Shown here: positions 9,904 through 63,675 of the stretch, one piece after another
Layout: every line of letters starts with the position of its first letter
Position numbering within the stretch: position 1 is the first letter of the stretch
DNA from: Gemmatimonadales bacterium
GTDB lineage: Bacteria > Gemmatimonadota > Gemmatimonadetes > Gemmatimonadales > GWC2-71-9
Assembly: GCA_044867445.1 (NCBI GenBank)
Contig: JBIOUY010000027.1
Coordinates: 18,124-82,123 of the forward strand
Direction of reading: 5' to 3'
DNA length: 64,000 nucleotides
Program-made: the position numbers and the translations under genes
Notes under the pieces: generated by a model
Databases searched by the model: none
What the model was told of the DNA's origin: nothing
The model's input: only the letters and a program-made list of their open reading frames with translations

Positions 9904-9914
9904 GGGTGGCTAAT

Positions 9915-10047
9915 CTAACAGCTAACAGCTAACAGCTAACAGCTAACAGCTAACAGCTAACAGCGGCGCCCTGGCTGCAGCGTCCGCTGCCTGGTCTGGC
10001 GATCTCGTCCAACGCGGACTGTTAGCTGTCAGCCGTTAGCCGTTAGC
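9915..10047. repeat. paired inverted tandem-array module A (CTAACAG x7, spacer, CTGTTAG/CCGTTAG-type arm)
   Basis: Seven perfect CTAACAG units at 9915-9963. The complementary arm ctgttagctgtcagccgttagccgttagc lies at 10019-10047. The module starts 12 nt after the P60 stop and ends 9 nt before the HAD start. Confidence 0.9.
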
Positions 10048-10055
10048 TTCTGTTC

Positions 10056-12483: not shown

Positions 12484-12744
12484 GCACTGCAACTGCGCAC
12501 TGCAACTGCGCACTGCAACTGCAACTGCGCACCACGGAGACACGGAAGACACGGAGATTGCACGGAACTGTAAGCGGGCTGCTTCTATTCTTTTGATAAG
12601 CTGAGGGTGCCTCTCCCCACCCCATCTTCTCATGTGAATGAGCCGGCGTGGCATTCCGTGCTGTCTTCGTGCTCTCCGTGTCTCCGTGGTGCGCAGTTAC
12701 AGTGCGCAGTTACGGTGCGCAGTTGCTTTGCCGAAGTGCGCAGC
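12484..12744. repeat. paired inverted tandem-array module B (compound: GCACTGCAACTGC-type plus ACACGGAG-type units)
   Basis: The left arm at 12484-12565 is (gcactgcaactgc)x3 followed by cacggagacacggaagacacggag. The right arm at 12656-12744 is ccgtgctgtcttcgtgctctccgtgtctccgtgg followed by (tgcgcagtta[c/a]ag)n, its reverse complement. A loop of about 90 nt with lower GC separates the arms. The module sits between the convergent acpS and kinase genes. Confidence 0.9.
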
Positions 12745-24368: not shown

Positions 24369-24384
24369 GCGGGAAAGATAAGGC

Positions 24385-24611
24385 AGTAGGAAGTGAGAAG
24401 TGAGAAGTAGAGGAGTAAGGAGTGAGGAGCGATGTCCTCCTGGAGAGAGCCCGGAAGGGCGACCGGAAGGGGCCGAAGCTCGATTTGGTTTCGGCTCCCT
24501 TCGTTCGCTGCGCTCAGTCCAGGGTGACTGCAGGCTCCCCCGACGTTCCCGCCTTCTCACTTCTTACTTCTCACTTCTTACTTCTTACTTCTCACTTCTC
24601 ACTTCTCACTC
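24385..24611. repeat. paired inverted heptamer-array module C (GAAGTGA/GGAGTAA type), inside the thiS-thiG junction
   Basis: The left arm at 24385-24429 is purine-rich heptamers. The right arm at 24553-24611 is CTTCTCA/CTTCTTA units. The 123-nt core contains a degenerate GATCCCTCGCTGCGCTC-like motif at 24495-24528. The thiS stop TGA (24610-24612) abuts the array. Confidence 0.9.
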
Positions 24612-24825
24612 ATCCGCCCCCGACAAAGTGCACCAGCTCCACGCGATCCCCCTGGGCCAGCGTGGTCTCTCCCAGCCGCGGTCGCCGAACGATCTCCCGA
24701 TTGAGCTCGACCACGACAGTCCGAGGATCCAGCGTGAGGTGACCCAGCAGATCGAGCAGAGTGGCCGGGCTCCGAATGCGGCGAGCCTCGCCATTCACCA
24801 GGATCTCGATTTCGGCCGAGGTCAT
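24610..24825 (-). CDS. thiS: sulfur-carrier protein ThiS
   Basis: 71 aa ending ...VHFVGGG (C-terminal Gly-Gly). The ATG at 24825 overlaps the thiE stop (ATGA). The 175-aa ORF-track version is a false extension. Confidence 0.85.
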   Translation of the reverse strand: MTSAEIEILVNGEARRIRSPATLLDLLGHLTLDPRTVVVELNREIVRRPRLGETTLAQGDRVELVHFVGGG

Positions 24826-25445: not shown

Positions 25446-26368
25446 GTGAGTTGCTGCCCCACGGAGATTCTACGACCTCGCACCCAGGCTTCGGCCGGCA
25501 TCCGGTTGCGACCGGCGGGCTGGACCTCGCGCACCGCGAGCGCGCCGTCGCCGCAGGCGATCACGAGCTGCTGGTCCGCGGACAGGACGGTTCCGGGTAT
25601 ACCCTCGCCGGCTGTCGGGGTGGGTCCGAACAGTTTGATCGCGGTCGCGTCGAGCGTGGCCCACGCCCCCGGACTCGGGTCGAAGGCGCGCACCTGGCGC
25701 GCCAATGCCTCTGCTCCGCGGGTCCAGTCGAGCCGGGCCGCCTCGCGATCGATCTTGGGAGCATAGGTGGCGAGTCCAGGATCCTGCGGCTGGGGCCGAG
25801 CCAGCCCGGCGGAGATGAGCGACAGCGCCTCGATCAATGCGGTGGCTCCGAGCTCAGCCAAACGGCCGGCCAGGGCACCGGCCGTCTCCCCTGGCCGGAT
25901 CGGAGTTGTGGCGCGATGGAGAATAGGACCGCTGTCCAGTCCCTCGTCCATCTGCATGATGCTGACGCCGGTCTCCATTTCACCGGCCAGGATCGCATGC
26001 TGGATTGGTGCGGCGCCGCGGTAACGGGGCAGGAGGGAGGCATGAACGTTGTACATCCCCCGGGGCGGAACGGTGAGGACCTCCCGTTTGAGGATGTGGC
26101 CATACGCTACCACCACCGCCAGATCAGGTTCCAGCCGCCGAAGGCTCGCGAGAAAGAGATCACCGAGCGGTCGGACCGGCTGGAGCACCGGCAGTCCGGC
26201 TGCCCGGGCAACCTGCTTGACCGGGGGAGCGACCAGGGTGGATCGGGACCGACCCTGGGGCTTATCGGGTTGGGTCACGACGCCGGCGACTGGGAAGCGC
26301 TCCCGCAGCAGTGCCCGAAGCGATGCGACCGCGAACTCCGGCGTTCCGAAAAAAACGATACGCATCAC
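25442..26368 (-). CDS. fmt: methionyl-tRNA formyltransferase
   Basis: IVFFGTPEFA N-terminus and the HASLLPRYRGAAPI motif. Confidence 0.9.
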   Translation of the reverse strand: MMRIVFFGTPEFAVASLRALLRERFPVAGVVTQPDKPQGRSRSTLVAPPVKQVARAAGLPVLQPVRPLGDLFLASLRRLEPDLAVVVAYGHILKREVLTVPPRGMYNVHASLLPRYRGAAPIQHAILAGEMETGVSIMQMDEGLDSGPILHRATTPIRPGETAGALAGRLAELGATALIEALSLISAGLARPQPQDPGLATYAPKIDREAARLDWTRGAEALARQVRAFDPSPGAWATLDATAIKLFGPTPTAGEGIPGTVLSADQQLVIACGDGALAVREVQPAGRNRMPAEAWVRGRRISVGQQLT

Positions 26369-26901
26369 TCCGACCGGGCAGTCGCCGCTTGCACCTCTTT
26401 GGTGTAGCCCGTGTCGTCCTTATGCTCCCGCCGATACTTGGCGAGCAGCATCTGACGCTTGATCAGGCTGAGATGATCGAGGAAGAGGATCCCGTCGAGG
26501 TGATCGATCTCATGCTGGATGGCCCGGGCCTTGAGCCCGGTGGCGTCGAGACGAAAGCGGATGCCTTCGCGGTCGAGCGCCTCGATGACCACCCGTTCCG
26601 GGCGGGTCACATCCCCGTAAATCTCCGGGATGGAGAGGCAGCCCTCCTCGGCGGAGGCACTGCCTTCGGTTTCGAGAATGATCGGGTTAATCATCGCGAA
26701 GCGTTCACCGTCCGCATCGACTACCGCTATTCGCCGGCTTACTCCTACCTGGTTTGCCGCGAGTCCGACGCCTTTGGCGGCATCCATAGTCTCGAACATG
26801 TCATCGACCAGTCGGCGTACCACATCGTCGACGCTGGTCACCTCGGTACTGTGCTGACGCAGCACCGGCGAGCCGAGCAGGTGGAGCGGGAGAAGGCTCA
26901 T
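26365..26901 (-). CDS. def: peptide deformylase
   Basis: GLAANQVG, EGCLS and HEIDHL metal-binding motifs. Confidence 0.92.
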   Translation of the reverse strand: MSLLPLHLLGSPVLRQHSTEVTSVDDVVRRLVDDMFETMDAAKGVGLAANQVGVSRRIAVVDADGERFAMINPIILETEGSASAEEGCLSIPEIYGDVTRPERVVIEALDREGIRFRLDATGLKARAIQHEIDHLDGILFLDHLSLIKRQMLLAKYRREHKDDTGYTKEVQAATARSE

Positions 26902-27230
26902 GCCGCGGGAACCGCCGGGGCAGAGGCGCCGCCGATGCGGACAATCCGGGAGCGCTCGATGATGACCGTTGCCGACCCCGACTCCACCGTGACCCGGACC
27001 TCTTTGACTCCGTCGGTCTCCACTTCCTTGATCTCCTTCACCCGGCCGATGATGCCGCCGCTGGTCATCACTTCATCTCCCTTCTTCAGATTCTCCAGGA
27101 GCGCCGCATGCTTCTTCCGGGCCTGACTCGAGGGCCGCAGGATCAGGAAGTAAAAGACCGCCCCGATGGCGAGCATCTGGAGCAGCAGGATCGTGAGACC
27201 ACCGCCGGAGCCGGTTGGGGTTTGGAGCAT
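26898..27230 (-). CDS. yajC: preprotein translocase subunit YajC
   Basis: 110 aa with a single TM. KGDEVMTSGGIIGRV motif. Confidence 0.85.
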   Translation of the reverse strand: MLQTPTGSGGGLTILLLQMLAIGAVFYFLILRPSSQARKKHAALLENLKKGDEVMTSGGIIGRVKEIKEVETDGVKEVRVTVESGSATVIIERSRIVRIGGASAPAVPAA

Positions 27231-27260
27231 GGGTGTTCCCTGTGGTTCCTCTCAGGTTGA

Positions 27261-29051
<1,791 letters not shown>

Positions 29052-31237: not shown

Positions 31238-31250
31238 GGGTGGAAAGTAG

Positions 31251-31500
31251 CAGCAAGAAGTAAGAAGTAAGAAGTAAGAATGTGAGAGGTGAGGAGTAAG
31301 GAGTAAGGAGCAAGGAGTGAGGAGTGAGGAGCAGGGTTAGTCCTCCTCATCCCGAGCGTAGGCCAGGGATCTGCTCAGCTGTCATCGCGACCCGCCGAGC
31401 AGACCCCTCCGTCAGGTACGCTCCCTCGGGATGACGAACCCGTTCAGTGGGTCACTCCTCACTCCTCACTCCTCACTCCTTAATTCTCACTGCTCACTGC
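31251..31500. repeat. paired inverted heptamer-array module D (GAAGTAA/GGAGTGA type), between the zinc-ribbon ORF and ruvB
   Basis: The left arm at 31251-31334 has about 12 units. The right arm at 31453-31500 is CACTCCT units followed by CACTGCT units. The core is itself a nested inverted repeat: cctcatcccgagcg at 31345 pairs with cgctccctcgggatgacg ending at 31436. Confidence 0.9.
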
Positions 31501-31676
31501 TTTTCTTGCAGCCTCGCCGTCCAGCGCACCGGTCGCTCGCCCGGCTGAATGAAGTGCCGGGCACCACAGTGGGAACACCGGTCGGTCAGCTGGATCGCGC
31601 GCGCCGGCACCAGTTTGCGATTGGTAGTTCCGCAGCGAGTGCAGTTCCACTCGGCGGTCACGGCAGCAACCGGCAT
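31494..31676 (-). CDS. small zinc-ribbon protein (CxxC...CxxC)
   Basis: 60 aa with CTRCG...CSHCG. It fills the gap between ruvA and module D, and its stop lies inside the right arm of the module. Confidence 0.5.
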   Translation of the reverse strand: MPVAAVTAEWNCTRCGTTNRKLVPARAIQLTDRCSHCGARHFIQPGERPVRWTARLQEKQ

Positions 31677-34306: not shown

Positions 34307-34717
34307 TTAGGTCCGATGTCGGGGAGCTGCGCTCGGGCGATGATGAAGCGTAGCCCGGGCAGCTCGGGCTGCCTGAGCCACGGCGTCCCCTGCCTCAGGA
34401 CCACCGGATTCCCGAGCCGGTGCCACCAACTGGCTCAGCACCTGAGCAGCGACTTCAGGGCTCGCCACTCGGAGTTGGCTCATGGCCGCGCTCAGCGCGC
34501 GCCGCAGCGGCGGTGGTATGGTGAGACTGGAAAGTCGATGCTCGAGAGCTTGAAGACGACGTCGATGAGCGCGGTCGCTGGGGGGAGGGTCCTGCAGCAG
34601 GTCCTGGGCAACCCGCAGGGTGAGCCACAAGGCGAAGATTCCCTCCCGGCGTGGCCCTCGGCCTGTTTGAGGCAGGAGAGTGAGTAACTCGGTGGCCGAG
34701 GGGTCCCAGCCGGTCAT
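34307..34717 (-). CDS. hypothetical protein (may be non-functional or part of the decayed helicase region)
   Basis: The ATG at 34717 overlaps the GT9 stop. The sequence is Ala/Arg/Pro-rich with no family. The weak VLSQLVAPARESGG resemblance to DnaB ALSQLNRAVEQRGG is not convincing. Confidence 0.35.
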   Translation of the reverse strand: MTGWDPSATELLTLLPQTGRGPRREGIFALWLTLRVAQDLLQDPPPSDRAHRRRLQALEHRLSSLTIPPPLRRALSAAMSQLRVASPEVAAQVLSQLVAPARESGGPEAGDAVAQAARAARATLHHRPSAAPRHRT

Positions 34718-35721
34718 GCGATGCTCCGCCGCAGGGCATCGAACACCGAGGCTGGTGTGATCTCTTTCATGCAGCGGTGATGACCCTCTGGACACACTGG
34801 CCCTCCCATCGCACTACAAGGGCGACAGGGGAGAGTGGTCTCCAGGACCTCGGCCGCCTGGCCGTAGGGAAAGAAGCCGAATGCGCGCACCGTCGGTCCG
34901 AAGAGGGCAACGAGCGGCGTGCCAACGCCGGTGGCCATGTGCATGACTCCGGTGTCGCCGCTGATCAGCACCCGAGCGTGCGCGAGAAGCGCTCCGGTCC
35001 CCTGGAGCCCGAACCGGCCCGCAGCCCTCCACGTCCGCTCCCGATGGTCTCGAGCCAGCTCGTCGGCCAGCTCGGCATCGTCCGGACCGCCCACGATCAC
35101 CACGTCCATGCCTGCGCAAACCACGCTGTGGAGCAGCCGGGACCAGTAGTCCATAGGCCACCGCTTGGTATGGTGCGCTGCCCCAGGCGCGATGGCGACT
35201 AAGGGACGGCCGGGATGGAGGCCCTGGGCCACCAGCCAGGCGGCGGCCTCATCGCGCGCCCGCCTGGCCAGGAAGAATTCGGGCGACTTGCCGTCGGGGT
35301 GCACATCCAGGTCTCGCGCCGCGTCGAAGTAGCGCTCGGGCACCGGACGAACGTCGCGGTACCGGTTTCGTTTGGTATGGATCAGGAGGGCCCGGCGGAT
35401 GCGGTGCTTCGGGTAGGTCCGCCAGGGACCAGGCACCATAGCGCGCAGCAGCTGGCTGCGCACGCTGTCGTGCAAATCGAGCAGATGGGTAAAGCCCTCG
35501 GCGCGCAGCTCGGCTGCGATGCGGACCAGCGAGCCCGAGGGATCGAGGGCCATGACCCGATTGATCCGCGGATTGTCGCTGAGCAGCGGCGCAAATGCCC
35601 GCTTGGTGAGCACTGTGATCCGGGCTTCCGGATGGCGTTGGCGGATGCTTCGCAACAGCGGCGTGGTGAGCAGCACATCGCCGATGGAGCTGAACCGGAC
35701 CACGAGGACGTTCGGGAGCAT
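34714..35721 (-). CDS. glycosyltransferase family 9 (LPS heptosyltransferase-like)
   Basis: VVRFSSIGDVLLTTPLLRSIRQRHPEARITVLT N-terminus and the C-terminal GDTGVMHMA motif. Start set at MLPNVLVV (35721); the ORF-track extension reads through module E. Confidence 0.85.
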   Translation of the reverse strand: MLPNVLVVRFSSIGDVLLTTPLLRSIRQRHPEARITVLTKRAFAPLLSDNPRINRVMALDPSGSLVRIAAELRAEGFTHLLDLHDSVRSQLLRAMVPGPWRTYPKHRIRRALLIHTKRNRYRDVRPVPERYFDAARDLDVHPDGKSPEFFLARRARDEAAAWLVAQGLHPGRPLVAIAPGAAHHTKRWPMDYWSRLLHSVVCAGMDVVIVGGPDDAELADELARDHRERTWRAAGRFGLQGTGALLAHARVLISGDTGVMHMATGVGTPLVALFGPTVRAFGFFPYGQAAEVLETTLPCRPCSAMGGPVCPEGHHRCMKEITPASVFDALRRSIA

Positions 35722-35740
35722 GGGCCGAGAGGAATGTACA

Positions 35741-35964
35741 GCAGGGGAGCAGGAAGTGAGAGGTGAGAGGTGACGGAGGGGCAGCGAGGGATCTGGGCCG
35801 GCTGCATCAAAGTCGGCGAGTAGATCCCTCGGTCGCTTGTGCTCCGTCGCTGCGCTCGGGGCACGCTCCTCGGGATTGCGCTCGGGGCATGCTCCTCGGG
35901 ATGAGGATTCACTCCGCACTCCTCACTCCTCACTTCTCACTTCTTACTTCTTACTTCTTACTGC
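35741..35964. repeat. paired inverted heptamer-array module E (GTGAGAG / CTCACTT, CTTACTT type) in a divergent promoter region
   Basis: Left arm at 35741-35779 and right arm at 35910-35964. The core holds gcagcgagggatct (35781) inverted against agatccctcggtcgc (35822). It also holds three tandem GCGCTCGGG/GCTCCTCGGGAT-like copies. Confidence 0.9.
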
Positions 35965-35992
35965 CCTCTTCTCACCCCGTTAAGTTTCAGTC

Positions 35993-39438: not shown

Positions 39439-40419
39439 GTGACTGAGACGTACTCTGATGCCCGGATCCTCCTGATCGGGGCGTTCGACGACGCCATGTA
39501 TGCCCATACGGCGCTGCGCCGTCGCGCGCTTCAGCGTCTGGGCTGCGCGGTCGGGACACTGAATCTGACCAGCCCGCGCCGCTGGTGGAGCCGGTTCCGG
39601 CGGGTCAGTCTGCGGGAGCGGTTGGAACAGGCGATCGCGCAATCGGTGCCCGGGATCGTACTCGTCCTGGAAGGCAGACAGCTCGAGGCAGCGCTCGTCG
39701 CCGAACTCAAGCGCCGCACTCGCGCTCTGTGGCTCAACTGGTTCTGCGATGGCCGCCGCTCGCTCGAGACGGTCAGGTCCATTGCCCCGGCCTATGATCG
39801 GGTCTTCGTCGCTGGCAGCGAGGTGGTCGCCGCTCTGAAGCAGCCGGGCCAGCCGCCGGCCCGGTATCTCGCCCCCGCCTGCGATCCCTCCGTGCATCGG
39901 CCCATGCGATCTCGAGATCAGTTTCGGGCGAACCTGGTGTTCGCGGGCACCGCGACGCCCCATCGCGAGCGACTCCTGTCCGAGTTGGTGGAGTTCGGGT
40001 TGGCGGTATGGGGGCCTGGATGGCGAAAGACGAAACTACGGGACTACTGCCGGGGAGAGTTGCTGGATCACCTCGACTATATCCGGGCCTATGCCGGTGC
40101 ATCGGTCGCGCTCAATCTGCAGTGGGGTGAGAGCTCGGGCCCGGCTCTCGATCCCGGGTGCAACCGCCGGCTTTTCGAGCTTGCCGCCATCGGCGTGCCC
40201 CAGGTCGCGGAGGACCGTCCCGACCTGCATCTCCATTTCCAGGAGGGCTCCGAAGTGCTCGTCTCCCGGGGCATCGCCGACTTCAAGGCGCTCATCACGG
40301 AGGCGTTGCACGACCGGGGATGGGCCGAGCAAGTGGCGGCCGGCGCGCGGCAGCGAGCGCTGACCGAGCACACCTATATGCACCGGATGGCCGAGCTGTT
40401 GAAGGCAGTGAGAAGTTAG
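39439..40419 (+). CDS. CgeB-family (DUF3880-type) glycosyltransferase-like protein
   Basis: The pattern FAGTATPHRERLL...WGPGW...NRRLFELAAIG...HTY..R resembles the CgeB/YkvP-type family. GTG start. The last codons and the stop lie in module F. Confidence 0.55.
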   Translation: MTETYSDARILLIGAFDDAMYAHTALRRRALQRLGCAVGTLNLTSPRRWWSRFRRVSLRERLEQAIAQSVPGIVLVLEGRQLEAALVAELKRRTRALWLNWFCDGRRSLETVRSIAPAYDRVFVAGSEVVAALKQPGQPPARYLAPACDPSVHRPMRSRDQFRANLVFAGTATPHRERLLSELVEFGLAVWGPGWRKTKLRDYCRGELLDHLDYIRAYAGASVALNLQWGESSGPALDPGCNRRLFELAAIGVPQVAEDRPDLHLHFQEGSEVLVSRGIADFKALITEALHDRGWAEQVAAGARQRALTEHTYMHRMAELLKAVRS

Positions 40420-40614
40420 AAGTGAGAAGTGAGAAGTGAGAACAAGTGAGAAGTGAGAAGTGGATCGAGTTCGCCGTTTCCAGTCCGCCGCGACTTCCCG
40501 GTACGTTCGGGACAGATCCCTCGCTGCGCTCGGGATGAGGAGCCCCGCTCCTCACTGCTCACCTCTCACCTCTCACCTCTCACCTCTCACCTCTCACTGC
40601 TCACTGCTCACTGC
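40405..40614. repeat. paired inverted heptamer-array module F (GTGAGAA / CTCACCT, CTCACTG type) between convergent glycosyltransferase genes
   Basis: Left arm at 40405-40462 with about 8 units. Right arm at 40547-40614 with about 10 units. The core carries GATCCCTCGCTGCGCTCGGGATGAGG at 40515-40540. Both flanking genes terminate inside the arms (stops at 40417 and 40601). Confidence 0.92.
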
Positions 40615-41527
40615 TGTTCGGCATCTCCCCCGTCTTCAAATACTCGCTAAACACCCGCAGGTAGCCTTCCGCCATCGCCAGGTGGGAAAAGTGCCGCTCG
40701 GCACGGGCCCGGCACGCGGCGGGATCGATCCGATCGATGCCGCGCGCCAGTTCGACCAACTCCTCCACGCTATCCCCCAGGGCGCCTACTTCCGCTGTGA
40801 CGATCTCGGGCAAGCTACCCCGACGGGTGCCCAGTATCGGTGTGCCGCACATCAAGGCCTCGAGCAGAACATTGGCGCAGGGCTCGTCCCAGAGGGCCGG
40901 CATCCAGAGGCAGCGCGCGCCGGCCAACAGCGTCATGCGTTGTTCCCCGTACACTGTGCCAACGTACCGGACCCAGCGACTGAAGCTAGGCCGCCAGCCG
41001 CCCGCCACCACCAGACGCCGCCGGCTACGCTTCGCTCCCTCCGCGGCCCAGTGATAGCCTTTGGCATGGTGCAGCCGTCCCAGGAAGAGGTCGAAGTCGG
41101 TCTTGATCGGCTGGAAGGGATATTCCCTCGGGTCCACGCCGTTGTACACGAACGTGTGGCCACCATGACGCCGAGCATGATCGGCACTGACGAACAGGGT
41201 GTTCGGGGGGCAGACCTGGCCAGGCCTCCGGTTGCCGGCCAGGCGCCAGATCCAGGGCACCCGGGGCGGAACATGCAATGGCGAGAAGGCGCAGAGAATA
41301 TCGATATCAGCAGGCAACCATGGTTGGATATCGAAACTCGGCCCGCGTGCGGCCCGGACGTCCACCGGCACCAGCGTGGTCTCGCGGACCTCTGATCCCG
41401 ATCCGGCCAGCAGGGTAACGCGGGTTCCCAACTCCGCCAATCCGCGAGCCACAGTGACGATTGCCCGCTGAGTGCCGCCATAACCCTGCACCGGGAGCCG
41501 GTCGGGAAAGAAGAGGGCCACGTGCAT
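40601..41527 (-). CDS. glycosyltransferase family 4 (GT-B, GT1 clan)
   Basis: C-terminal EPCANVLLEALMCGTPILGTRRGSLPE (E-x7-E type motif). N-terminal YGGTQR... region. Confidence 0.75.
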   Translation of the reverse strand: MHVALFFPDRLPVQGYGGTQRAIVTVARGLAELGTRVTLLAGSGSEVRETTLVPVDVRAARGPSFDIQPWLPADIDILCAFSPLHVPPRVPWIWRLAGNRRPGQVCPPNTLFVSADHARRHGGHTFVYNGVDPREYPFQPIKTDFDLFLGRLHHAKGYHWAAEGAKRSRRRLVVAGGWRPSFSRWVRYVGTVYGEQRMTLLAGARCLWMPALWDEPCANVLLEALMCGTPILGTRRGSLPEIVTAEVGALGDSVEELVELARGIDRIDPAACRARAERHFSHLAMAEGYLRVFSEYLKTGEMPNSSEQ

Positions 41528-50306: not shown

Positions 50307-51441
50307 TCTCGCCGCGCTCCGCCGGGAGGAGTTCCCCTGGTGCGAGCACACGGTCTACCTCAACAACGCCAGCACTGGCCCACTGCCTGAGCGCACCCGC
50401 CTGGGGTTGGAAGAATTCAACCGCCGCCGGACGCAGCCATTCCGTCTGCCCGATCGCGATGTGTTCGCGATGCTGGATCACTCGAGAGCTCTCATTGGAG
50501 AGCTGATCGGCGCGGACCAGGAGGAGATCGCCCTCTCGGTCAATACCGGTTTCGGGCTGAGCCTGGCGGCCCGGGCCCTGCCGCTCAAGGCAGGGGAGAT
50601 CGTGCTGGGAAGTGATCGTGAGTTCCCCGCGAACGTGTACCCGTGGATGCGCCTCCGCGAGAGCGGCATCACCTTCGAGCGGACCCCCACGACTGAAGCC
50701 GGCTGGCCCGACGAAGACCGTCTGCTGGAGCGGCTGGGGGACCCTCGGGTTCGAGTGGTGGCGATCTCCTGGGTCCAGTTCAGCAATGGGTACATGGTGG
50801 ATCTGGCCCGGTTGTCAGAGGCTACCCGGAGCGCGGGCGTGTTCCTGGTGGTAGACGCGATTCAGGGTGTGGGACAAGTTCCCCTGGACTTGCGGCGGAC
50901 CCCGGTTGATGTGCTGGCCTGCGGGGGCCAGAAATGGCTGCTCTCACCCTGGGGCTCTGGATTCACCTATGTGCGTCGGGAGATGATTGCTCGGCTCAGC
51001 CCAGCCGTTACCGGGTGGATGGCCTTCGAGGGGACAGACGACTTCAGCCGATTGACCCGCTACGACGACAGGCTGAGGGGGGATGCACGACGCTTCGAGC
51101 TGGTTACGCTCCCCTATCAGGAGTTCGCCGGAATGAACGTCTCGCTCGAGCTGCTGCTTTCGATCGGGGTGGAACGCACCCGAGAACACCTACGGGCCTT
51201 GCATCGGCCGATTCTCGAATGGGCGCAGCGTGCCGGGGCCCGGGTGGCGTCACCCACGGACGGCCACGGCTCGGGTATCCTCTGCATTGCGCCACCCGCG
51301 GTGGACGATGTCTTCCGACGGCTCAAGGCGGCTCGGATCATCTGCAGCCTGCGGGAGGGGATGATCCGGCTGAGTCCGCACTTCTACAACAGCGTGAGGG
51401 ATATGGAGCGGGTGGTGGAGGAGCTGGAAGGTGAGAGGTGA
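50296..51441 (+). CDS. class V aminotransferase-fold PLP enzyme (cysteine desulfurase/selenocysteine lyase-like)
   Basis: YLNNASTGPLP N-terminus and VDAIQ...GGQKWL (PLP-Lys region). The GTG at 50296 overlaps the upstream gene end. The last codons GER and the stop lie in the module G arm. Confidence 0.75.
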   Translation: MSVDLAALRREEFPWCEHTVYLNNASTGPLPERTRLGLEEFNRRRTQPFRLPDRDVFAMLDHSRALIGELIGADQEEIALSVNTGFGLSLAARALPLKAGEIVLGSDREFPANVYPWMRLRESGITFERTPTTEAGWPDEDRLLERLGDPRVRVVAISWVQFSNGYMVDLARLSEATRSAGVFLVVDAIQGVGQVPLDLRRTPVDVLACGGQKWLLSPWGSGFTYVRREMIARLSPAVTGWMAFEGTDDFSRLTRYDDRLRGDARRFELVTLPYQEFAGMNVSLELLLSIGVERTREHLRALHRPILEWAQRAGARVASPTDGHGSGILCIAPPAVDDVFRRLKAARIICSLREGMIRLSPHFYNSVRDMERVVEELEGER

Positions 51442-51939
51442 AAGGTGACAGGTGACAGGTGAGAGGTGACAGGTCAGTCTTTGGGCCCGTACCGCTTTCT
51501 CAGCCCCATGAGCAGGGCCTGCGCTCTGGAGCATTGCTTTCGAGCTGGCTGGACGACCGATTTCCGGCACGATGCTCTCCGACATGCAAAGATCCAGCAG
51601 CTCTGCTGTCTCGACCGCGGAACCATAGGCAATGGTCAGATGATGTCGAAACGACCGACTCGATTGACGGGCGTACCCTTCAGCGATATTCAGTTGTACT
51701 GATAATGACGCCCGCTGCAGTTGACTGAAGACACTCGCGAGTCGAGGCTGATAGTAGTCCCGGGTGATCGCCATGACATGACCAACCAGGGCGCGTGCGA
51801 CCTGCCAGGCGACGAGGGACCGATGGTCTCGCATACTGGATGATGGCGCGGGCCGCGCGGCTTGTTGTATCGCGATCCCGCAGCCTCAATCCTGGCAGCG
51901 CTCCGGCCTTCACCTGTCACCTGTCACCTGTCACCTTCC
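51431..51939. repeat. paired inverted heptamer-array module G (GTGAnAG / CTGTCAC type) enclosing a four-helix-bundle gene
   Basis: The left arm at 51431-51472 is six GTGA[G/A/C]AG units. The right arm at 51908-51939 is (CACCTGT)n. The 435-nt core carries the four-helix-bundle ORF on the minus strand. The right arm ends 2 nt before the ATG of the next gene. Confidence 0.9.
51474..51834 (-). pseudogene. four-helix-bundle protein (23S rRNA intervening-sequence protein family), apparently frameshifted
   Basis: The N-terminal about 95 aa fit the family (SLVAWQVA...LQRASLSVQLNIAEGYARQS...AYGSAVETAELL). The family-like C-terminus (...RAQALLMGLRKRYGPKD*) and a stop at 51474-51476, at the arm edge, are in another frame, because 361 nt is not divisible by 3. 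The in-frame 194-aa ORF instead runs antisense through the array and the neighbouring gene. Confidence 0.55.
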
Positions 51940-59042: not shown

Positions 59043-59597
59043 GTGCGGTGCCTGGCGTTGAATGCCTCCTTCGAGCCACTGACAATGGTGCCGGTGCGGC
59101 GCGCCTTGCGACTCGTCATCGAGGGCAAGGCGGAGATCGTGGAATCCGACGGTCCCGACCTGGTTCGAAGTGAACGCCTGACGCTGCCCAAACCTGCAAT
59201 TATCCGGCTCATCAAGTTCGTGCACGTTCCCCGCCGCTTCCGTCGCCAGGTCACCAACACATTCCTCTTTGCTCGTGATGGTTACCGATGCCAGTTCTGC
59301 CACCGGGGACAGAACGAGCTGCGTCATCGGGAATGCCTGACCCGGGACCATCTGGTCCCGCTCTCTCGCGGGGGCGACAACGAATGGACCAACGTGGTGA
59401 CCGCCTGCAGTTCCTGCAACACTCGCAAGGGTAATCACCTGCCCGAAGAGTGCGGCATGCACCCGCTGATCGTGCCGAGGGAGCCGCACTTCGTACACCT
59501 GTCGTGGGCTGTGCGCCGGCTCTCGGCGGCGCAGGCGAAATACATCAAGTTGTTCTACGGTGAGGAAGCCCTGCGGGCGTTGGGGGGGACGGTCTGA
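59043..59597 (+). CDS. HNH endonuclease-family protein
   Basis: CQFC...LTRDHLVPLSRGG...NVVTACSSCNTRKG, the zinc-finger HNH pattern. GTG start. Confidence 0.8.
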   Translation: MRCLALNASFEPLTMVPVRRALRLVIEGKAEIVESDGPDLVRSERLTLPKPAIIRLIKFVHVPRRFRRQVTNTFLFARDGYRCQFCHRGQNELRHRECLTRDHLVPLSRGGDNEWTNVVTACSSCNTRKGNHLPEECGMHPLIVPREPHFVHLSWAVRRLSAAQAKYIKLFYGEEALRALGGTV

Positions 59598-59601
59598 GGG
59601 C

Positions 59602-59790
59602 GTGAAGCGTGAAAGGTGAAACGTGACAGGTGAAGCGTGAGAGGTGAAAGGTGAAAAGGCGCCAAAATTCGGCTCCTTTTTACTTTTTACGGTTCACGTT
59701 TCACGTCTTTTACGTTCTTTTACGTTTCCCGGTTCACGTTTCACCTGTCACCCGTCACCTGTCACCTGTCACCTTCACCCCTCACTTCAC
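59602..59790. repeat. paired inverted heptamer-array module H (GTGAnnn x8 / about 16 complementary units, AT-rich inner part)
   Basis: The left arm at 59602-59657 is eight exact-period GTGA[A/C/G][A/G][C/G/A] units. aaaaggcgcc pairs with ggctcctttt around the 7-nt loop AAAATTC (59664-59670). The right arm runs to 59790 with CTTTTTA, GTTCACG, TTTCACG and CTGTCAC units. The module starts 5 nt after the HNH stop, and the convergent gene stop (59782) lies inside the right arm. Confidence 0.92.
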
Positions 59791-60476: not shown

Positions 60477-62258
60477 CTAGAACCGGCGCTGCAGCCTGAC
60501 CACGAACTTGACCGGCTCGGCGTCGGTGAGGGCCTTCACCAGATACGCGCCGATCTGGCCTGCATCGATCCCGACCCCGACATCCCACTTCCACTCGTGC
60601 AGGGAGGGAATGCGGTTGACCGGCACTTGACTCGGCCCATCCCCCGCGAGCCAGGCCTTTCCAGCGTCACCCAGCAGCACCAGATCGGCCTCTTCGATGC
60701 CGATGAAGCGCCCGTTGGGTCCACCGTCTCGGTCCCGGAAGCGGTGGCCGAGGTTGAGGCCCAGCCTGGTCCGCACCTCGATTTGGGCGGCGATCATGCG
60801 GTCGCAGAGCGCCAGCTGGGACGGATCGTTGAAGCCTCTCGGTGCGCAGGTGAAGGCCCGGAAGTCATAGCCCGGCATCAGGTCCAGCCCGCCCAGTGAG
60901 ACTCGGCGCTGCACCGGCAGCCGGTCGCCGCCGACCCATCCATCCGCCCGGAGCCGAGCGTTGACCCGGAGCGAGGGCGTGAGCCGTGAATACCGCCGCA
61001 GGTCCAGGGAGAGACGATCGAAGTGGTAGCCACCGAAAAGCGGGGGCGCGGGACGAATGACCTCGGGTAAGGTCACCGGCGCGACGTTATCGCTGGTGGA
61101 GTGCTCGAACCGGGCTCGGAGGAACCAGCCGGTGCTGGGAAGGTCCCGCTCGTTTCGAGTATCGAAGTCCAGCGCCAGGCCGGTGGTAAAGTAGGCGCCG
61201 TCGTCGATCAGCGGATTTCGCCGCCACCGGTCGCTGTTGCGCAGGAGCGACCATGGGTCAGTGGCGCGGACCGAATGTTCGCCGTCGCGACGGAGACTGA
61301 GCTCGAATCGGAGCGGACGCAGCGGCTGAACCCAGGCCGCCGCGCCGCCACCCTGGCGTTCGAAGTAGTCGTGGTAGTCGCGTTGGAGCAGGAACGCGGA
61401 CCAGCCATTCTCGCTGGGTGAGAGTGGCTGGTCCTCGATGGAGCTGGTCTCGCTGTACACTCGCCCCGTGATGCCGGCGACAGCGGTCTTGACCTCGAGG
61501 CGGAGGTTGTACCCGAAATCGCTGCTCAACCGCGAGCCTTCGCTCGCACTCCGCAGGATCCCCCGTAGGTCGAGCCTTGCCACCGAGCCGCGAGTCGGGC
61601 GCAGCTCGAACATCGGCCCGAACACAATGGGCAGCCCTTCTATCCGGTTGTAGGTGCCTCCGGTCCCCAGCGTGAGTGTGGTTCTGACTTTTCCGGTCTG
61701 AAAGCTGGTCCGCGCGGTGGCCAGCTCGGACAGGGGGCGCCGGCGCTCGCGCAGAACCAGTATGCCGTCGGCGTTGCGCAGCACCGGTGCGGCATCCCAG
61801 TACACCCGCTCGCGGCCCTCGTGCTGAGCGTTGGGGGAGCGGATCAGGCGTCCACCAACCACCAGGATGTCCCCGTCCACCACCGCGCCCGGCAGCAGAT
61901 ACAGGGTGCCATTGGCGACCGCGATCGGACCTGAGACCCGGCCCGAGATGCGGAGCGCGCCGCGATACTGCCCCAGACGGCCCTCGAACCGGCTGTCAGG
62001 TGGTAGGCTTACATCTCCCTGCATGCGAGTGGTGGCGGAATCGTTGTAGAAGGCGATCAGGTCGCTGACGACGCTGGACGGAGGCCCGCCGCGCATCACC
62101 GTGTCAATCGGAGGGGCGTCGGGATCGATGACGATGACGCTGTCCTGAGCCCGCAGGCGCGTGACGACGCCGAAGAAGAGAAGAGCATGAAAGGTGAAAC
62201 GTGAAACGTGAAAGGTGAAACGTGAAAGGTGAAGGGCGGAGCGAGGTGATATGGGCAT
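60477..62258 (-). CDS. Omp85-family outer-membrane beta-barrel protein with an N-terminal bactofilin-like/polymer-forming repeat region
   Basis: C-terminal barrel ending ...VRLQRRF (terminal Phe). The N-terminal region has GxxxVxGDIxVVGG-type repeats. The only in-frame starts (ATG 62258, GTG 62273) lie upstream of repeat array I, so the array is translated (SRFTFHVSRFTFHALLFFGVV). Confidence 0.7.
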   Translation of the reverse strand: MPISPRSALHLSRFTFHVSRFTFHALLFFGVVTRLRAQDSVIVIDPDAPPIDTVMRGGPPSSVVSDLIAFYNDSATTRMQGDVSLPPDSRFEGRLGQYRGALRISGRVSGPIAVANGTLYLLPGAVVDGDILVVGGRLIRSPNAQHEGRERVYWDAAPVLRNADGILVLRERRRPLSELATARTSFQTGKVRTTLTLGTGGTYNRIEGLPIVFGPMFELRPTRGSVARLDLRGILRSASEGSRLSSDFGYNLRLEVKTAVAGITGRVYSETSSIEDQPLSPSENGWSAFLLQRDYHDYFERQGGGAAAWVQPLRPLRFELSLRRDGEHSVRATDPWSLLRNSDRWRRNPLIDDGAYFTTGLALDFDTRNERDLPSTGWFLRARFEHSTSDNVAPVTLPEVIRPAPPLFGGYHFDRLSLDLRRYSRLTPSLRVNARLRADGWVGGDRLPVQRRVSLGGLDLMPGYDFRAFTCAPRGFNDPSQLALCDRMIAAQIEVRTRLGLNLGHRFRDRDGGPNGRFIGIEEADLVLLGDAGKAWLAGDGPSQVPVNRIPSLHEWKWDVGVGIDAGQIGAYLVKALTDAEPVKFVVRLQRRF

Positions 62259-62287
62259 ACGATGGTCCTTCACTGTTCACGTTTTAT
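62187..62287. repeat. paired inverted heptamer-array module I (GTGAAAC/GTGAAAG x7 with a short complementary arm)
   Basis: The left arm at 62187-62235 has strict 7-nt period. The right arm at 62267-62287 is ccttcac tgttcac gttttat. The left arm overlaps the 5' coding end of the Omp85-like gene. Confidence 0.85.
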
Positions 62288-62304
62288 GCCTTTGGTGCTG
62301 CGCT

Positions 62305-63675
62305 TCAGGTCTCACGTTTGTCGCTGTTGCCGATGCCCAACCGCCGCATGCGCCGATACAGGTTGGCCCGATCGGTCTGGAGTACGCGCGCGGCCTCAGC
62401 CACGTTGCCCTGGGACTGAGCCAGCGCGGCCGCGATGAGCCCGTGCTCGAATTCATCCAGCGCATCGTTGAGTGGCCGGCCCAGGGCCGCCGCCGCTGCC
62501 GGCGGGATCGGAGTAGGGCGAAGCACCTGGCGCACCGCCGGCGCGTCCACCACGGGGCCGCTCAGGATGCTGAGCCGCTCGACCAGGTTGGCCAGCTCCC
62601 GCACGTTACCCGGCCAGGGGTAGGAGCCCAACGCGTCTATCGCTGCCGGAGTGAACGCTACGCCGTCTCGGGGCCGTACCCGCTCGGCCAGATGGGACAC
62701 CAGCGCGGGCAAGTCCTGCAGCCGCTGCCGGAGCGGCGGCAGGTGGATGGGGAAGACGTTGAGCCGGAAAAACAGATCTTCTCGAAAATTTCCCTCGGCA
62801 ACCTCGACGTCTAGCCGGCGGTTGGTGGCCGATACAATCCGGACATCCACTCGCACCGTGTGCTCCGCACCGATCCGCTGGAGATCGCCGGTCTCCAAAG
62901 TCCGCAGCAATTTGGCCTGAGCCTCGGCGCTCAGGTCGCCGATTTCGTCGAGGAAGAGCGTGCCGCCATGCGCCAGCTCGAAACGGCCCAGGCGCCTCTC
63001 GGTGGCCCCGGTGAAGGCCCCGCGCTCGTGCCCGAACATCTCGCTCTCCACCAGGTCGCGAGGAATGGCGGCGCAGTTCACGGTGACGAACGGCCGCTGG
63101 GCCCGTTGACTCGCCGCGTGGATCGCGGCAGCGACCAACTCCTTCCCCGTACCCGAGTCGCCGGTGATGAGTACCCGTGCCTCGGTTGGGGCGACTCTGG
63201 CGATGAGGGCCCTGACGTCCTGCATGGCCGGGCTATCGCCGATGAGGGTACCTCGCGGTGCCAGCTCCGCCCGAAGCGCGCGGTTCTCGGCCCGGGTCCG
63301 ATTCAGCTCCAGCGCGGCCCGTACGGTCACGAGGACCGACTCCGGCGCGAGCGGCTTCTCCAGGAATTGGAAGGCGCCGAGCTTCACAGCGCGCACCGCA
63401 TCGGTGAGTTGAGCCTTGCCGCTCATCATGATGACCGGGATGTTGCGTCCCCGCTCGCGCATGCGAGCAAGCGTCGCCAGTCCGTCGGGGCCCGGGGGCA
63501 TCAGCAGGTCGAGCAGGACGACGTCGGGATCGGCGTCATCCAGCATGAGCAGCGCGGCGTTCCCATTGGCCGCCTCCGCCACGGTGTAGCCTTCCTCCCG
63601 CAGCAGCGCGGCCAGCATCCGGCGAATGTTGGCTTCGTCATCCACCAGGAGTACCTGTACCGAGCCGGCGCTCAT
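62305..63675 (-). CDS. sigma-54-dependent response regulator (NtrX/NtrC family)
   Basis: REC domain (LLVDDE...DLLMPPG). GDSGTGKE Walker A, GAFTGA loop (ERGAFTGA) and a C-terminal HTH. Confidence 0.9.

Follow-up and report, generated by a model that had tools for sequence, protein, structure and literature searches.

An intergenic palindrome of tandem heptamers supplies the stop codons of two convergent glycosyltransferase genes in a soil Gemmatimonadales genome

Module G, a palindrome of ~210–213 nt in a soil Gemmatimonadales genome (40405–40617 of the 64-kb stretch analysed here, the window), consists of an inverted pair of tandem heptamer arms and represents, within the Gemmatimonadales, the inverted pairs of heptameric repeats known from Xanthomonas, Nostoc, and Geobacter. 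A preliminary description of this DNA had seen in the stop codons of the arms a strand-symmetric design, possibly that of an insulator; its observations were partly confirmed and its interpretation is partly supported. We consider it probable, though not overwhelmingly so, that module G is a fast-evolving intergenic palindromic tandem-array element whose apparent design is a survivorship effect, not that of a purpose-built insulator. The polarity of its arms is common to related hairpins devoid of stops, which therefore points to a known, poorly understood repeat class rather than to a purpose-built device.

The left arm of module G carries TGA or TAG in 3/3 plus-strand frames; the right arm is stop-free in the plus reading and has TGA in 3/3 frames on the minus strand (Table 1). 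Copy numbers of the two arrays, from Tandem Repeats Finder and a custom scan, are 7.6 and 9. The GTGAGAA-type units contain no G-runs and hence are not of the G-quadruplex type. The modules are accompanied by palindromes of a distinct REP-like family (TGTCATCCCGAGCGAAGCGAGGGATCT...), which are also found nested within module cores.

Table 1. Modules of the window with associated genes and internal features (positions are those of the window)
Feature	Position	Strand	Description
Module A	9912–10048		(CTAACAG)7 ... (CTGTTAG/CCGTTAG)n; between P60 stop and HAD hydrolase start
Module B	12484–12724		outer 13-mer arrays and inner CACGGAGA ... TCTCCGTG 8/9-mer arrays
Module C	24385–24614		GTGAGAA/GTAAGGA arm, 120-nt core, CTTCTCA/CTTCTTA arm
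Module C flanks	thiS stop 24610; thiG start 24368	both minus	
Module D	27231–27334		(GTCGTTG)n...(CAACGAC)n read on minus; between tgt stop (27335) and yajC start (27230)
Module E	31249–31500		between zinc-ribbon ORF (31494–31676, minus; stop within arm) and ruvB start (31237)
REP-like palindrome, module E core	31344–31374 / 31419–31437		
Module F	35752–35965		between divergent starts: GT9 heptosyltransferase (minus) and PglZ response-regulator (35993, plus)
Glyco_trans_1_2 glycosyltransferase gene	39439–40419	+	TAG 40417–40419 within variant unit GTTAGAA of module G left arm
Module G left arm	40405–40464		~8 units AGTGAGA; variants AGTTAGA and one 10-nt unit; purine-rich
Module G core	40465–40550		86 nt, non-repeated
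REP-like family fragment, module G core	40513–40541		CAGATCCCTCGCTGCGCTCGGGATGAGGA
Small GC hairpin, module G core into right arm	40537–40553		
Module G right arm	40551–40617		~9 units CTCACTG / CTCACCT
Glycos_transf_1 glycosyltransferase gene	40601–41527	-	TGA (40601–40603 on +) within module G right arm
Module H	51428–51939		(AGGTGAC)n arm with aminotransferase stop 51439–51441; 432-nt core; (TCACCTG)n arm
Decayed PF05635 four-helix-bundle (23S rRNA IVS protein) ORF, module H core	from 51834	minus	
Module I	59600–59785		GTGAAAG/GTGAAAC arm vs TTTCACG/TCACCTG arm
Module I flanks	HNH gene stop 59595–59597; DUF4390 gene stop 59782–59784		convergent; DUF4390 stop within arm
Module J	62187–62320		(GTGAAAC/GTGAAAG)7 arm and degenerate TCAC arm; absent from the earlier list

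How do two genes come to end on a repeat? At the orthologous site of L211 and L212, which is empty, the convergent glycosyltransferase genes are separated by 5 nt and each ends on a TAG of its own (...ATGCCG TAG AGTTG CTA CTGCAC...), where the window carries the ~213-nt module. Comparison of filled and empty site indicates that ~14 nt, including both native stops, were replaced by module G; it revealed no target-site duplication, and the flank is not duplicated. TGA and TAG of the array now terminate both genes, adding an RS ending (+1 aa) to one and, as its final 5 residues, the array-encoded tail NSSEQ (+5 aa) to the Glycos_transf_1 product. The preliminary description had left a choice between insertion aimed just 3′ of stop codons and the survival of only such insertions; since the native stops have been replaced by array stops, module G fits the survival-only option.

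The arrays evolve quickly. In a sister strain (L210) the outer units and a DSSEQ* tail are kept, and the inner arms and core differ from those of the window, while the arrays of the near-identical L001 differ from the window's at the level of single units: between near-identical strains, arms gain, lose, and substitute units. The same module sites, with varying array length and sequence, are found in L001, L210, L124, and L125, and modules persist at the same sites across genomes of 85–91% identity. Many relatives have only an empty spacer of 9–46 nt at the thiS-thiG, tgt-yajC, and ruvB-upstream sites; in others these sites are occupied by REP-like palindromes, by hairpins of 8/9-mer arrays, or by GTGA hairpins of another unit type. 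ThiS keeps its native stop, thiG and ruvB keep the conserved leader ahead of them, and the length of the zinc-ribbon ORF differs by at most 2 aa with and without the array.

Ten modules lie within the 64 kb. We counted 17 period-7 arrays in the window, 11 of which reach 35 nt or more; in Markov simulations the mean was 0.43 arrays and none attained that length. The cores of modules A to J, 27 to 432 nt in size, show no relationship beyond short REP-like fragments common to E, F, and G, which rules out a shared mobile core, and no transposase accompanies the modules. Both arms of module A carry stops on both strands; module B, flanked by the stops of acpS and of a histidine-kinase gene, is nearly stop-free. 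The TCAC arm of module H stops 1 nt short of the herA-like ATG at 51941, and the degenerate arm of module J contains the stop of a sigma-54 response-regulator gene (62305). PF05635 genes are bracketed by inverted arrays in module H and at L204, L205, L208, L214, L053, L078, and L083; these 8/8 cases amount to 6 independent sites, as module H of the window, L204, and L214 share one. A plus-strand ORF at 26311–27126 proved spurious, the true gene there being yajC on the minus strand.

In modules C, E, F, G, H, I, and J, the left arm in its plus-strand reading and the right arm in its minus-strand reading have stops in all three frames, and the opposite readings contain none except for one TAA each in the left arm of G (minus) and the right arm of E (plus). 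Both properties follow from heptamer arithmetic: a purine-rich unit (left arms are 78–85% purine) with a single T gives T-purine-purine, a stop in three of four cases, a period of 7 brings this triplet into every frame, and the complementary arm stays open. The claim that GTGA modules show stops in every frame on entry thus holds for C, E, F, G, H, and I, with J to be added. That the GTGA arm is always on the left in modules C to I is true of the same six, but not of D, a hairpin of another type (GTCGTTG/CAACGAC) with just two TCAC units at its edge. Likewise, the distal arms of the window are nearly free of stops as described, although the TAAs are in E and G rather than a single one in D. 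As a general rule, openness on exit fails: in viral contigs, 47/124 GTGA hairpins (38%) have a stop on an exit arm.

At least seven window genes end on array stops. T in the window arms is followed by GA, AA, or AG 99 times and by GG once, and GTAA outnumbers GTGG by 15:1 in the window and by 6:4 across phyla. As a sign of selection for stop-keeping variants the GTAA excess is unusable, given that slippage copies units and that the excess is no more than 6:4 across phyla. A degree of selection in favour of stop-bearing units may nevertheless operate, although slippage inflates the window counts.

Does the polarity serve to present stops, as had been proposed? The GTGA arm comes first in 6/6 confirmed GTGA modules of the window and in J, in 24 cases versus 2 with TCAC first among 120 loci from many phyla, in 35 versus 2 in a wider census, and in 107 versus 5 in a scan of the whole of IMG/VR. 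Whole IMG/VR scans for other unit types returned the same order, namely GTGG-first 46:0, GGGA-first 41:2, and GTTG-first 74:4; summed over the four types of this unbiased scan, most of them without stop codons, the G-rich arm is 5′ on both strands in 268 cases versus 11. Stops in all frames were present in 8/46 GTGG hairpins and 2/36 GGGA hairpins, and GTGA-type hairpins are 2–3 times commoner in IMG/VR than the GTGG or GGGA types. An arm order shared by GTGG, GGGA, and GTTG arrays that rarely or never bear stops speaks against the proposal, as does the same order in the GGGAATC arrays of Xanthomonas (PMC4692102). These controls show that the fixed order, in which either strand has its G-rich arm 5′, characterises the entire class, stop-less arrays included. 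A purine-first rule was dropped in favour of G-first, GTTG and CAAC arms being equal in purine and still ordered 74:4. A function or a generating mechanism could lie behind the G-first polarity; Rho avoidance as its cause would be pure inference.

Nor is a targeting of the modules to gene ends supported. Of their 18 flanks in the window, 11 are gene ends and 7 are gene starts, the latter 1–27 nt from an arm, and a crude cross-phylum census of flanks counted 20 ends and 18 starts; flank distances to the arm were -23 to +13 nt for stops and 2–81 nt for starts. The stops previously listed as inside, abutting, or just outside arrays (24610, 27335, 31494, 40417, 40601, 51439, 59782, 59595, 12481, and 9901) are all correct, but the accompanying statement that flanking genes end at arms passes over the seven starts and module F, which has no facing end: flanked by two divergent starts, it is entered by no ribosome. 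Targeted insertion 3′ of stops is likewise at odds with an ends-to-starts ratio of ~1:1, with modules inside the thiS-thiG and ruvA-ruvB runs, and with F between its divergent starts. The modules simply fill short intergenic spacers.

Folding predicts near-perfect stems of 50–60 bp (~55 bp) on either strand, with stabilities of -105 and -122 kcal/mol (z = -6.4 and -7.1). A scan of F and G for terminators was negative, and the hairpins show no signature of intrinsic termination, the marks of which are a compact GC-rich stem-loop followed by a U-tract and, for bidirectional action, preceded by an A-tract. Counts of T- and A-runs around 200 hairpins gave no signal, and in 101 GTGA hairpins the expected sides were no richer in T5+ or A5+ runs than the control sides. 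Searching the whole window against Rfam at gathering thresholds yielded 0 matches, rRNA included. Mimicry of the anti-Shine-Dalgarno sequence was rejected: the TCACCTC of the right arm of module G equals the 16S 3′ tail, but the three variable bases differ elsewhere, as judged by eye. A full-text literature search for three consecutive GTGAGAA units, the REP-like palindrome, and CACGAAGG arrays retrieved nothing relevant.

Could the modules nonetheless be purpose-built bidirectional insulators, whose arms stop ribosomes from either side and whose hairpin stops or uncouples transcription between neighbours? Every GTGA module displays all-frame stops both ways, at least seven window genes end on array stops, both native stops have been replaced at G, the hairpin is predicted to be very stable on both strands, and TGG is nearly missing among the T-starting triplets of the arms. 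We still hold this explanation to be very unlikely: stop-less arrays have the same polarity (46:0, 41:2, 74:4), as does Xanthomonas GGGAATC, and the hairpins carry neither a U-tract nor another terminator signature. Modules also lie within thiS-thiG, zinc-ribbon ORF-ruvB, and tgt-yajC, co-directional pairs of conserved adjacency that may be co-transcribed and in which a transcription block would be harmful, as well as between tRNA genes in L215, where translation is irrelevant, and between the divergent starts at F. Add to this the empty orthologous sites of many relatives and the exit-arm stops of 38% of GTGA hairpins elsewhere. The same locations between co-directional neighbours and between tRNA genes would be compatible with a selected RNA processing or stability element, its stem serving as an RNase III site where cleavage would separate cistrons, leave protective duplex ends, and set differing mRNA levels. 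The predicted stems of 50–60 near-perfect bp on either strand would suit such a role, and module H and its relatives carry, between inverted arms, the PF05635 ORF of rRNA IVS, whose stem in Coxiella is cut by RNase III (PMC4990558). In only 1/4 co-directional modules, however, is the better-folding strand the transcribed one, and we therefore set strand-specific RNA selection aside as evidence, since the sense RNA bears no mark of selection that tolerates G-U pairs. With sites dispensable in relatives, no Rfam match, and a polarity that a stem leaves unexplained, selection for RNA processing appears unlikely.

At the DNA level, the heptads might be iterated protein-binding sites, read by a ribbon-helix-helix protein or by IHF/HU in nucleoid organisation or global regulation, a view suggested by a GTGA core at strict 7-nt spacing whose other three bases vary both inside a genome and from one genome to another in many phyla. 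A ribbon-helix-helix protein reading TCAC heptads is a candidate, on the model of the pSM19035 plasmid omega repressor with its WATCACW heptads. The arms of module G share the core and not the variable bases and are therefore not optimised for pairing; the arrays are abundant (10 modules per 64 kb), and the authors of the Geobacter study proposed the same role for paired sites (PMC2700814). On the other side, core conservation is partly circular because the scan was GTGA-seeded, and the majority of the cross-phylum examples have variable bases that mirror each other from arm to arm, as in a hairpin. GTGG, GGGA, GTTG, GGGAATC, and 8/9-mer arrays behave alike and would need many different binding proteins, and no candidate binding protein was identified; we regard binding arrays as improbable. 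Finally, G-first heptad-array hairpins could be a single class across bacteria and phages with one undescribed dedicated mechanism, the GTGA subclass being adapted to landing on stops, which seems to us quite unlikely. One candidate is a templated process that extends the two 3′ ends of a break with G-rich repeats before the ends are joined, which would give exactly the observed arm order; another is hairpin-specific mobilisation in connection with the four-helix-bundle proteins (PF05635 / 23S-IVS) so often enclosed by the arrays.

Survivorship of a fast-evolving repeat, the reading we prefer, would work as follows. GTGA arms would offer an immediate stop in any frame, so that elements could abut or overlie gene ends at almost no cost, and selection would thereby let them saturate the tiny spacers of a compact genome. 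Once transcribed, the arms should pair into a ~55-bp stem, double-stranded RNA of the kind that RNase III cuts in the 23S rRNA IVS; any effect of the modules on mRNA processing or stability would probably be a side consequence. Module density and site persistence could reflect a host function.

For annotation, the arrays of these genomes matter in that they provide real stops and hence array-coded C-terminal tails such as NSSEQ, and in that the open strand yields false N-terminal extensions and read-through ORFs, as in GT9, ThiG, and a 194-aa PF05635 ORF deposited in NCBI. False extensions had been attributed to the open arm for ThiG, GT9, and ThiS, correctly in the first two cases; that of ThiS is not caused by a module. 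Short-read assemblies are broken by the arrays, and Logan contigs end there. More generally, a repeat that incidentally encodes stops in every frame can colonise spacers down to 5 nt in a compact genome. The controls sharpen the idea of design into that of a G-first order common to arrays of four unit types, with the regular enclosure of PF05635 genes beside it.

Several known systems resemble the modules in part. Repeats of TAACTGA in marine Beggiatoaceae, cyanobacteria, and Bacteroidetes (MacGregor 2015, PMC4679880) are likewise intergenic heptamer arrays whose forward reading has stops in all three frames, which confines overlap to the last ORF codons; they differ in occurring as 169 direct versus 1 indirect set, mostly just 5′ of start codons, and do not form paired hairpins. 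REP, BIME, and REPIN elements are also abundant intergenic palindromes, often just past stops and inside operons and tolerated as hairpins, but module arms are slippage-prone tandem repeats without a fixed unit-length consensus, and no GTAG head was identified; REP and REPIN elements are characterised by a conserved 20–40-nt palindromic consensus that has a GTAG-type head and is mobilised by a RAYT transposase. From MITEs, the modules are set apart by the missing target-site duplication at G and by internal sequence and size that are not shared among copies. The 23S rRNA IVS with an S23p / PF05635 ORF, for example in Coxiella and Leptospira (Coxiella stem cut by RNase III, PMC4990558), has terminal inverted repeats that pair into a long stem, with an optional PF05635 ORF enclosed between them, an arrangement also present in module H and its relatives, module G being a stem without the ORF. 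These IVS are seen as selfish, their mobility being unknown. Unlike them, the modules sit between protein-coding genes rather than in 23S rRNA helices, have tandem-array arms instead of unique 28-bp repeats, and in most copies, G included, lack the ORF.

Nearer still are the 'global regulator binding sites' of Geobacter metallireducens, classes 1–3 of which are tandem repeats paired across the two strands (Aklujkar et al. 2009, PMC2700814), which were read as IHF/HU sites and whose stops and polarity were not analysed there. Like the modules, they are short opposite-strand array pairs at variable distance, intergenic and also within operons (proBA); class 3 consists of five tandem heptamers, and the class 2 unit TCTCCGTS(Y) is the inner unit of module B. 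Their heptamer consensus is MTYCTGA and not GTGAnnn, and the GTGAGAA unit of module G conforms to neither class 2 nor class 3. The closest prior art is the inverted G-rich heptameric pairs described by Rehm et al. (2015, PMC4692102), with GGGAATC in Xanthomonas campestris and axonopodis and GGGGAYT (STRR-type) in Nostoc. There, ~90% of heptamers are intergenic, with 70–75 convergent pairs (+ then -) per genome; on the coding strand the G-rich array lies 0–50 bp after, or overlaps, a stop, and on the non-coding strand it precedes starts, and sites are shared between species while array length and sequence vary (PMC4692102). The modules have in common with these pairs the tandem heptamers, arm order, placement rule, and conserved sites, showing at least three units at a 7-nt period, a convergent opposite-strand pair, intergenic placement with the G-rich array 0–50 bp past or overlapping a stop and the C-rich array ahead of starts, and a kept site with a varying array. 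Module G differs in lacking G-quadruplex-forming G-runs, a feature of the published examples that the architecture does not need. What further distinguishes the Gemmatimonadales modules is their host, their larger cores with nested REP-like pieces or a PF05635 gene, and a GTGAnnn unit that is inherently stop-bearing, whose arms replaced native stops.

Module G, the element under study, lies between two convergent glycosyltransferase (GT) genes, and its arrays demonstrably supply the stop codons of both. The window (G+C content, 65.6%; closest named homologues of its proteins in Gemmatimonadales metagenome-assembled genomes) contains 17 arrays of period 7, of which 11 reach 35 nt or more, compared with a mean of 0.43, and none of at least 35 nt, in first-order Markov simulations. 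They are paired in inverted orientation around cores of 27–432 nt. Read on entry (left arm on the plus, right arm on the minus strand), both arms of modules C, E, F, G, H, I, and J are stopped in all three frames; the opposite, exit readings hold no stop save one TAA in the left arm of G and one in the right arm of E. The stop-on-entry pattern noted in the preliminary description is thus real and striking and extends to module J; the stop coordinates given there are all correct. Stray exit-strand stops are indeed rare, but had been misplaced to D, which is not a GTGA module: it is a hairpin of another type, (GTCGTTG)n...(CAACGAC)n, separating tgt from yajC. In module A both arms carry stops on either strand; module B has almost none. 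False N-terminal extensions through open arms, likewise proposed earlier, were seen twice: the GT9 ORF (401 aa; database gene call, 387 aa; Pfam domain from residue 133) runs upstream into module F because the exit arm is open, as does its similarly extended counterpart in locus L001, and ThiG (331 aa, domain only from residue 80) is overextended in the same way.

Coordinates of the features discussed (window positions unless a locus fetched from another genome or contig is named)
Feature	Position	Strand	Remark
Module G, left arm	40405-40464		~8 tandem heptamers, GTGAGAA type
Module G, core	40465-40550		unique, 86 nt
Module G, right arm	40551-40617		~9 heptamers CTCACCT/CTCACTG, complement type
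GT gene	39439-40419	+	TAG stop within variant unit, left arm of G
GT gene	40601-41527	-	TGA stop within right arm of G
Module J	62187-62320
GT9 gene	34714-35919	-
GT9 counterpart	L001 15589-16752
Zinc-ribbon ORF	31494-31676	-	60 aa, CxxC...CxxC
REP-like fragments	40513-40541		core of G
REP-like fragments	31344-31374/31419-31437		core of E
REP-like fragments	35781-35796/35892-35907		core of F
REP-like palindrome	L126, L127, L130, L131, L133, L153, L162, L164		relatives
8/9-mer array hairpin	12533-12557/12662-12688
8/9-mer array hairpins	L136, L153, L173		upstream of ruvB
TTATCTTT	24369-24384	-	same position in L125, L132, L143, L145, L136; before thiS in L167
GTGA/GTAA hairpins	L215 1860-2360		GTAC centre, between tRNA genes
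OsmC-like gene with arrays	L120 5602-6144
PF05635 gene	51475-51834	-	module H
PF05635 gene	L204 3001-3360		Gemmatimonadales-like
PF05635 gene	L205 3001-3375		Gemmatimonadales-like
PF05635 gene	L208 2363-2719		Gemmatimonadales-like
PF05635 gene	L214 1501-1851		Gemmatimonadales-like
PF05635 gene	L053 7570-7905		Acidimicrobiaceae
PF05635 gene	L078 2140-2478		Omnitrophota
PF05635 gene	L083 6311-6670		Omnitrophota

Why do these arrays carry stops? The property is arithmetic. In the purine-rich reading every T precedes two purines, T-purine-purine spells TGA, TAA, TAG or TGG, and a period of seven covers three frames within 21 nt; the pyrimidine-rich complementary arm cannot hold such a triplet. Unit sequence and arm order therefore yield stops on entry and openness on exit. 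Arm order itself is non-random, as had been suspected. A scan for four GTGA units (one genome per species; at least 120 loci, many phyla) gave, among the loci listed, 24 nearby pairs with GTGA left and TCAC right and two in the opposite order, ~400 nt apart and each bracketing a gene; a motif-free census of periods 7–13 in all fetched loci gave 35:2 for GTGA-type pairs; and a symmetric scan of the whole IMG/VR collection (three units, gap of 10–40 nt, three units; L216–L487) gave 107:5, three of the five being junctions between adjacent hairpins. Yet the order is not particular to stop-bearing arrays. Other units in the motif-free census, such as GGGGAAA, CACGAAGG, GACGGAAG, GGCGCAGA and GGATTGC, mostly without any stop, place the purine-rich or G-rich arm first at ~20:1, and in IMG/VR the same order prevails for GGGA (41:2), GTGG (46:0) and GTTG (74:4), even though both entry arms are stopped in all frames in 124/124 GTGA hairpins as opposed to 2/36 GGGA and 8/46 GTGG hairpins (exit arms contain a stop in 38–65% of IMG/VR hairpins). 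The rule, the G-rich arm 5′ on both strands, is therefore class-wide and independent of stop codons. A purine-first rule is ruled out because GTTG and CAAC, equal in purine content, still segregate 74:4. Some large viral contigs of IMG/VR sample 3300045988 carry many hairpins each. At L215 the G-rich arm is again first, in a tRNA-gene setting where translation is irrelevant. The OsmC-like gene of L120 has (ATTCACC)n upstream and (GGTGAAT)n, holding its stop, downstream, an enclosing pair in reverse order.

The association with gene ends had been ascribed either to insertion aimed 3′ of stop codons or to survival of only such insertions. Gene ends and gene starts flank the modules at similar rates: 11 and 7 in the window, where starts lie 1–27 nt from an arm and module F separates two divergent starts, and 20 and 18 in a crude cross-phylum census of GTGA hairpins, with arm-to-stop distances of −23 to +13 nt. 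Where empty, the orthologous sites are short spacers. In L211 and L212 (GT 85% identical) the GT genes lie 5 nt apart (...AAG ATG CCG TAG / AGTTG / CTA CTG CAC...), and in the window a ~213-nt module replaces ~14 nt including both native stops, changing the protein ends from ...GKMP* and ...RAVQ* to ...EMPNSSEQ* and ...KAVRS*; no target duplication is visible in this comparison. The tgt-yajC spacer is 9 nt in relatives, in place of module D. The thiS-thiG spacer measures 20–46 nt in many relatives, others having a REP-like palindrome (TGTCATCCCGAGCGAAGCGAGGGATCT...) and L125, L124 and the window GTGA hairpins of differing unit type and core; here ThiS still ends at its native stop behind the essential Gly-Gly, the array begins 0–8 nt further on, and the conserved leader ahead of thiG persists. 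The site upstream of ruvB is empty in 7 or 8 relatives and holds REP-like palindromes in three, 8/9-mer array hairpins of the module B type in three and GTGA hairpins in four, while the length of the preceding zinc-ribbon ORF stays constant within 2 aa. Together, these sites and the flank census lend no support to stop targeting and argue for arrays that would colonise any small free spacer, selection deciding what persists. That both GT genes now end on array stops fares well with the survival alternative and supports the notion that only stop-bearing arms might survive atop a gene end.

After insertion, module G appears to have kept evolving. L210 (91% identical) retains the outer units and a DSSEQ* tail alongside a different core and inner arms, which points to a single old insertion with probable interior turnover thereafter; the near-identical L001 shows unit changes in one arm only. 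L001 (JBIOTS010000147.1) and L210 (JBIOTS010000180.1), with GTs 100% and 91% identical, both come from GCA_044866105.1, and two GT-locus versions in one assembly suggest a mixed-strain bin. Two Logan contigs (L002, L003) end exactly at the array; such repeats thus break short-read assemblies.

Other elements share these sites. In relatives, the same intergenic positions hold palindromes of a distinct, REP-like family, TGTCATCC(C/T)GAGCGAAGCGA(G/A)GGA...TCCCTCGCTTCGCTCGGGATGACA, and (CACGRAGG)n...(CCTYCGTG)n hairpins often carry a TTCACC...GGTGAA cap. The zinc-ribbon ORF, conserved in every relative examined, sits between ruvA and ruvB; in the window, L124 and L125 the array encodes its final codons and stop. 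A conserved pyrimidine-rich motif, TTATCTTT, occupies the expected Shine-Dalgarno position 6–8 nt ahead of the start codon of thiG (and of thiS), and a similar CTACTTTCC precedes ruvB; the motif may be a non-SD leader or a regulatory site. Within its core, module H carries a gene for a four-helix-bundle protein of PF05635 ('23S rRNA intervening sequence'). This copy has decayed: its own stop is lost and it reads out via the open arm to 194 aa, an ORF that exists as a deposited protein (P0001). Inverted tandem arrays bracket 8/8 PF05635 genes encountered (Gemmatimonadales, Acidimicrobiaceae, Omnitrophota and another lineage); in L214 the cargo at the aminotransferase/herA site is oriented opposite to that of the window and L204.

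Do the modules act as bidirectional insulators, as had been proposed? All fold strongly on both strands (G, −105 kcal/mol on plus, z = −6.4; −122 kcal/mol on minus, z = −7.1), the transcribed strand being the better-folding one in only 1/4 modules. The modules match no Rfam family, nothing resembling a terminator was seen at F or G, and around 101 GTGA hairpins neither downstream T-runs nor upstream A-runs were in excess. Modules C, D and E separate the co-directional pairs thiS-thiG, tgt-yajC and zinc-ribbon ORF-ruvB, whose adjacency is conserved across relatives; both this location and the placement of the L215 hairpins between tRNA genes speak against any strong block to transcription or translation, and an insulator role is unsupported.

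Several known systems invite comparison with these modules. Two MITE features were looked for and not found, a target-site duplication at G and a core shared among modules, nor do the arms have a REP-type fixed consensus. 23S rRNA intervening sequences carry PF05635 ORFs between terminal inverted repeats, the stem being cut by RNase III (PMC4990558), and the ORF lies likewise within inverted repeats in module H and its relatives. Among the paired tandem-repeat sites catalogued in Geobacter (Aklujkar et al. 2009; PMC2700814), 'class 2' of Geobacter metallireducens (TCTCCGTS) shares the unit of the 8/9-mer hairpins and of module B. A heptamer stopped in three frames can overlap only ORF ends (MacGregor 2015; PMC4679880). 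Closest are the GGGAATC heptamers of Xanthomonas and GGGGAYT of Nostoc (Rehm et al. 2015; PMC4692102): ~90% intergenic, in convergent pairs 70–75 times, located at most 50 bp after or over a stop on the coding strand and before starts on the non-coding strand, conserved in site and variable in length. Architecture and placement rule are the same as here, but their unit lacks a stop. We file module G among these inverted heptameric repeat pairs, an already known kind, to which it adds the GTGAnnn unit and a Gemmatimonadales host.
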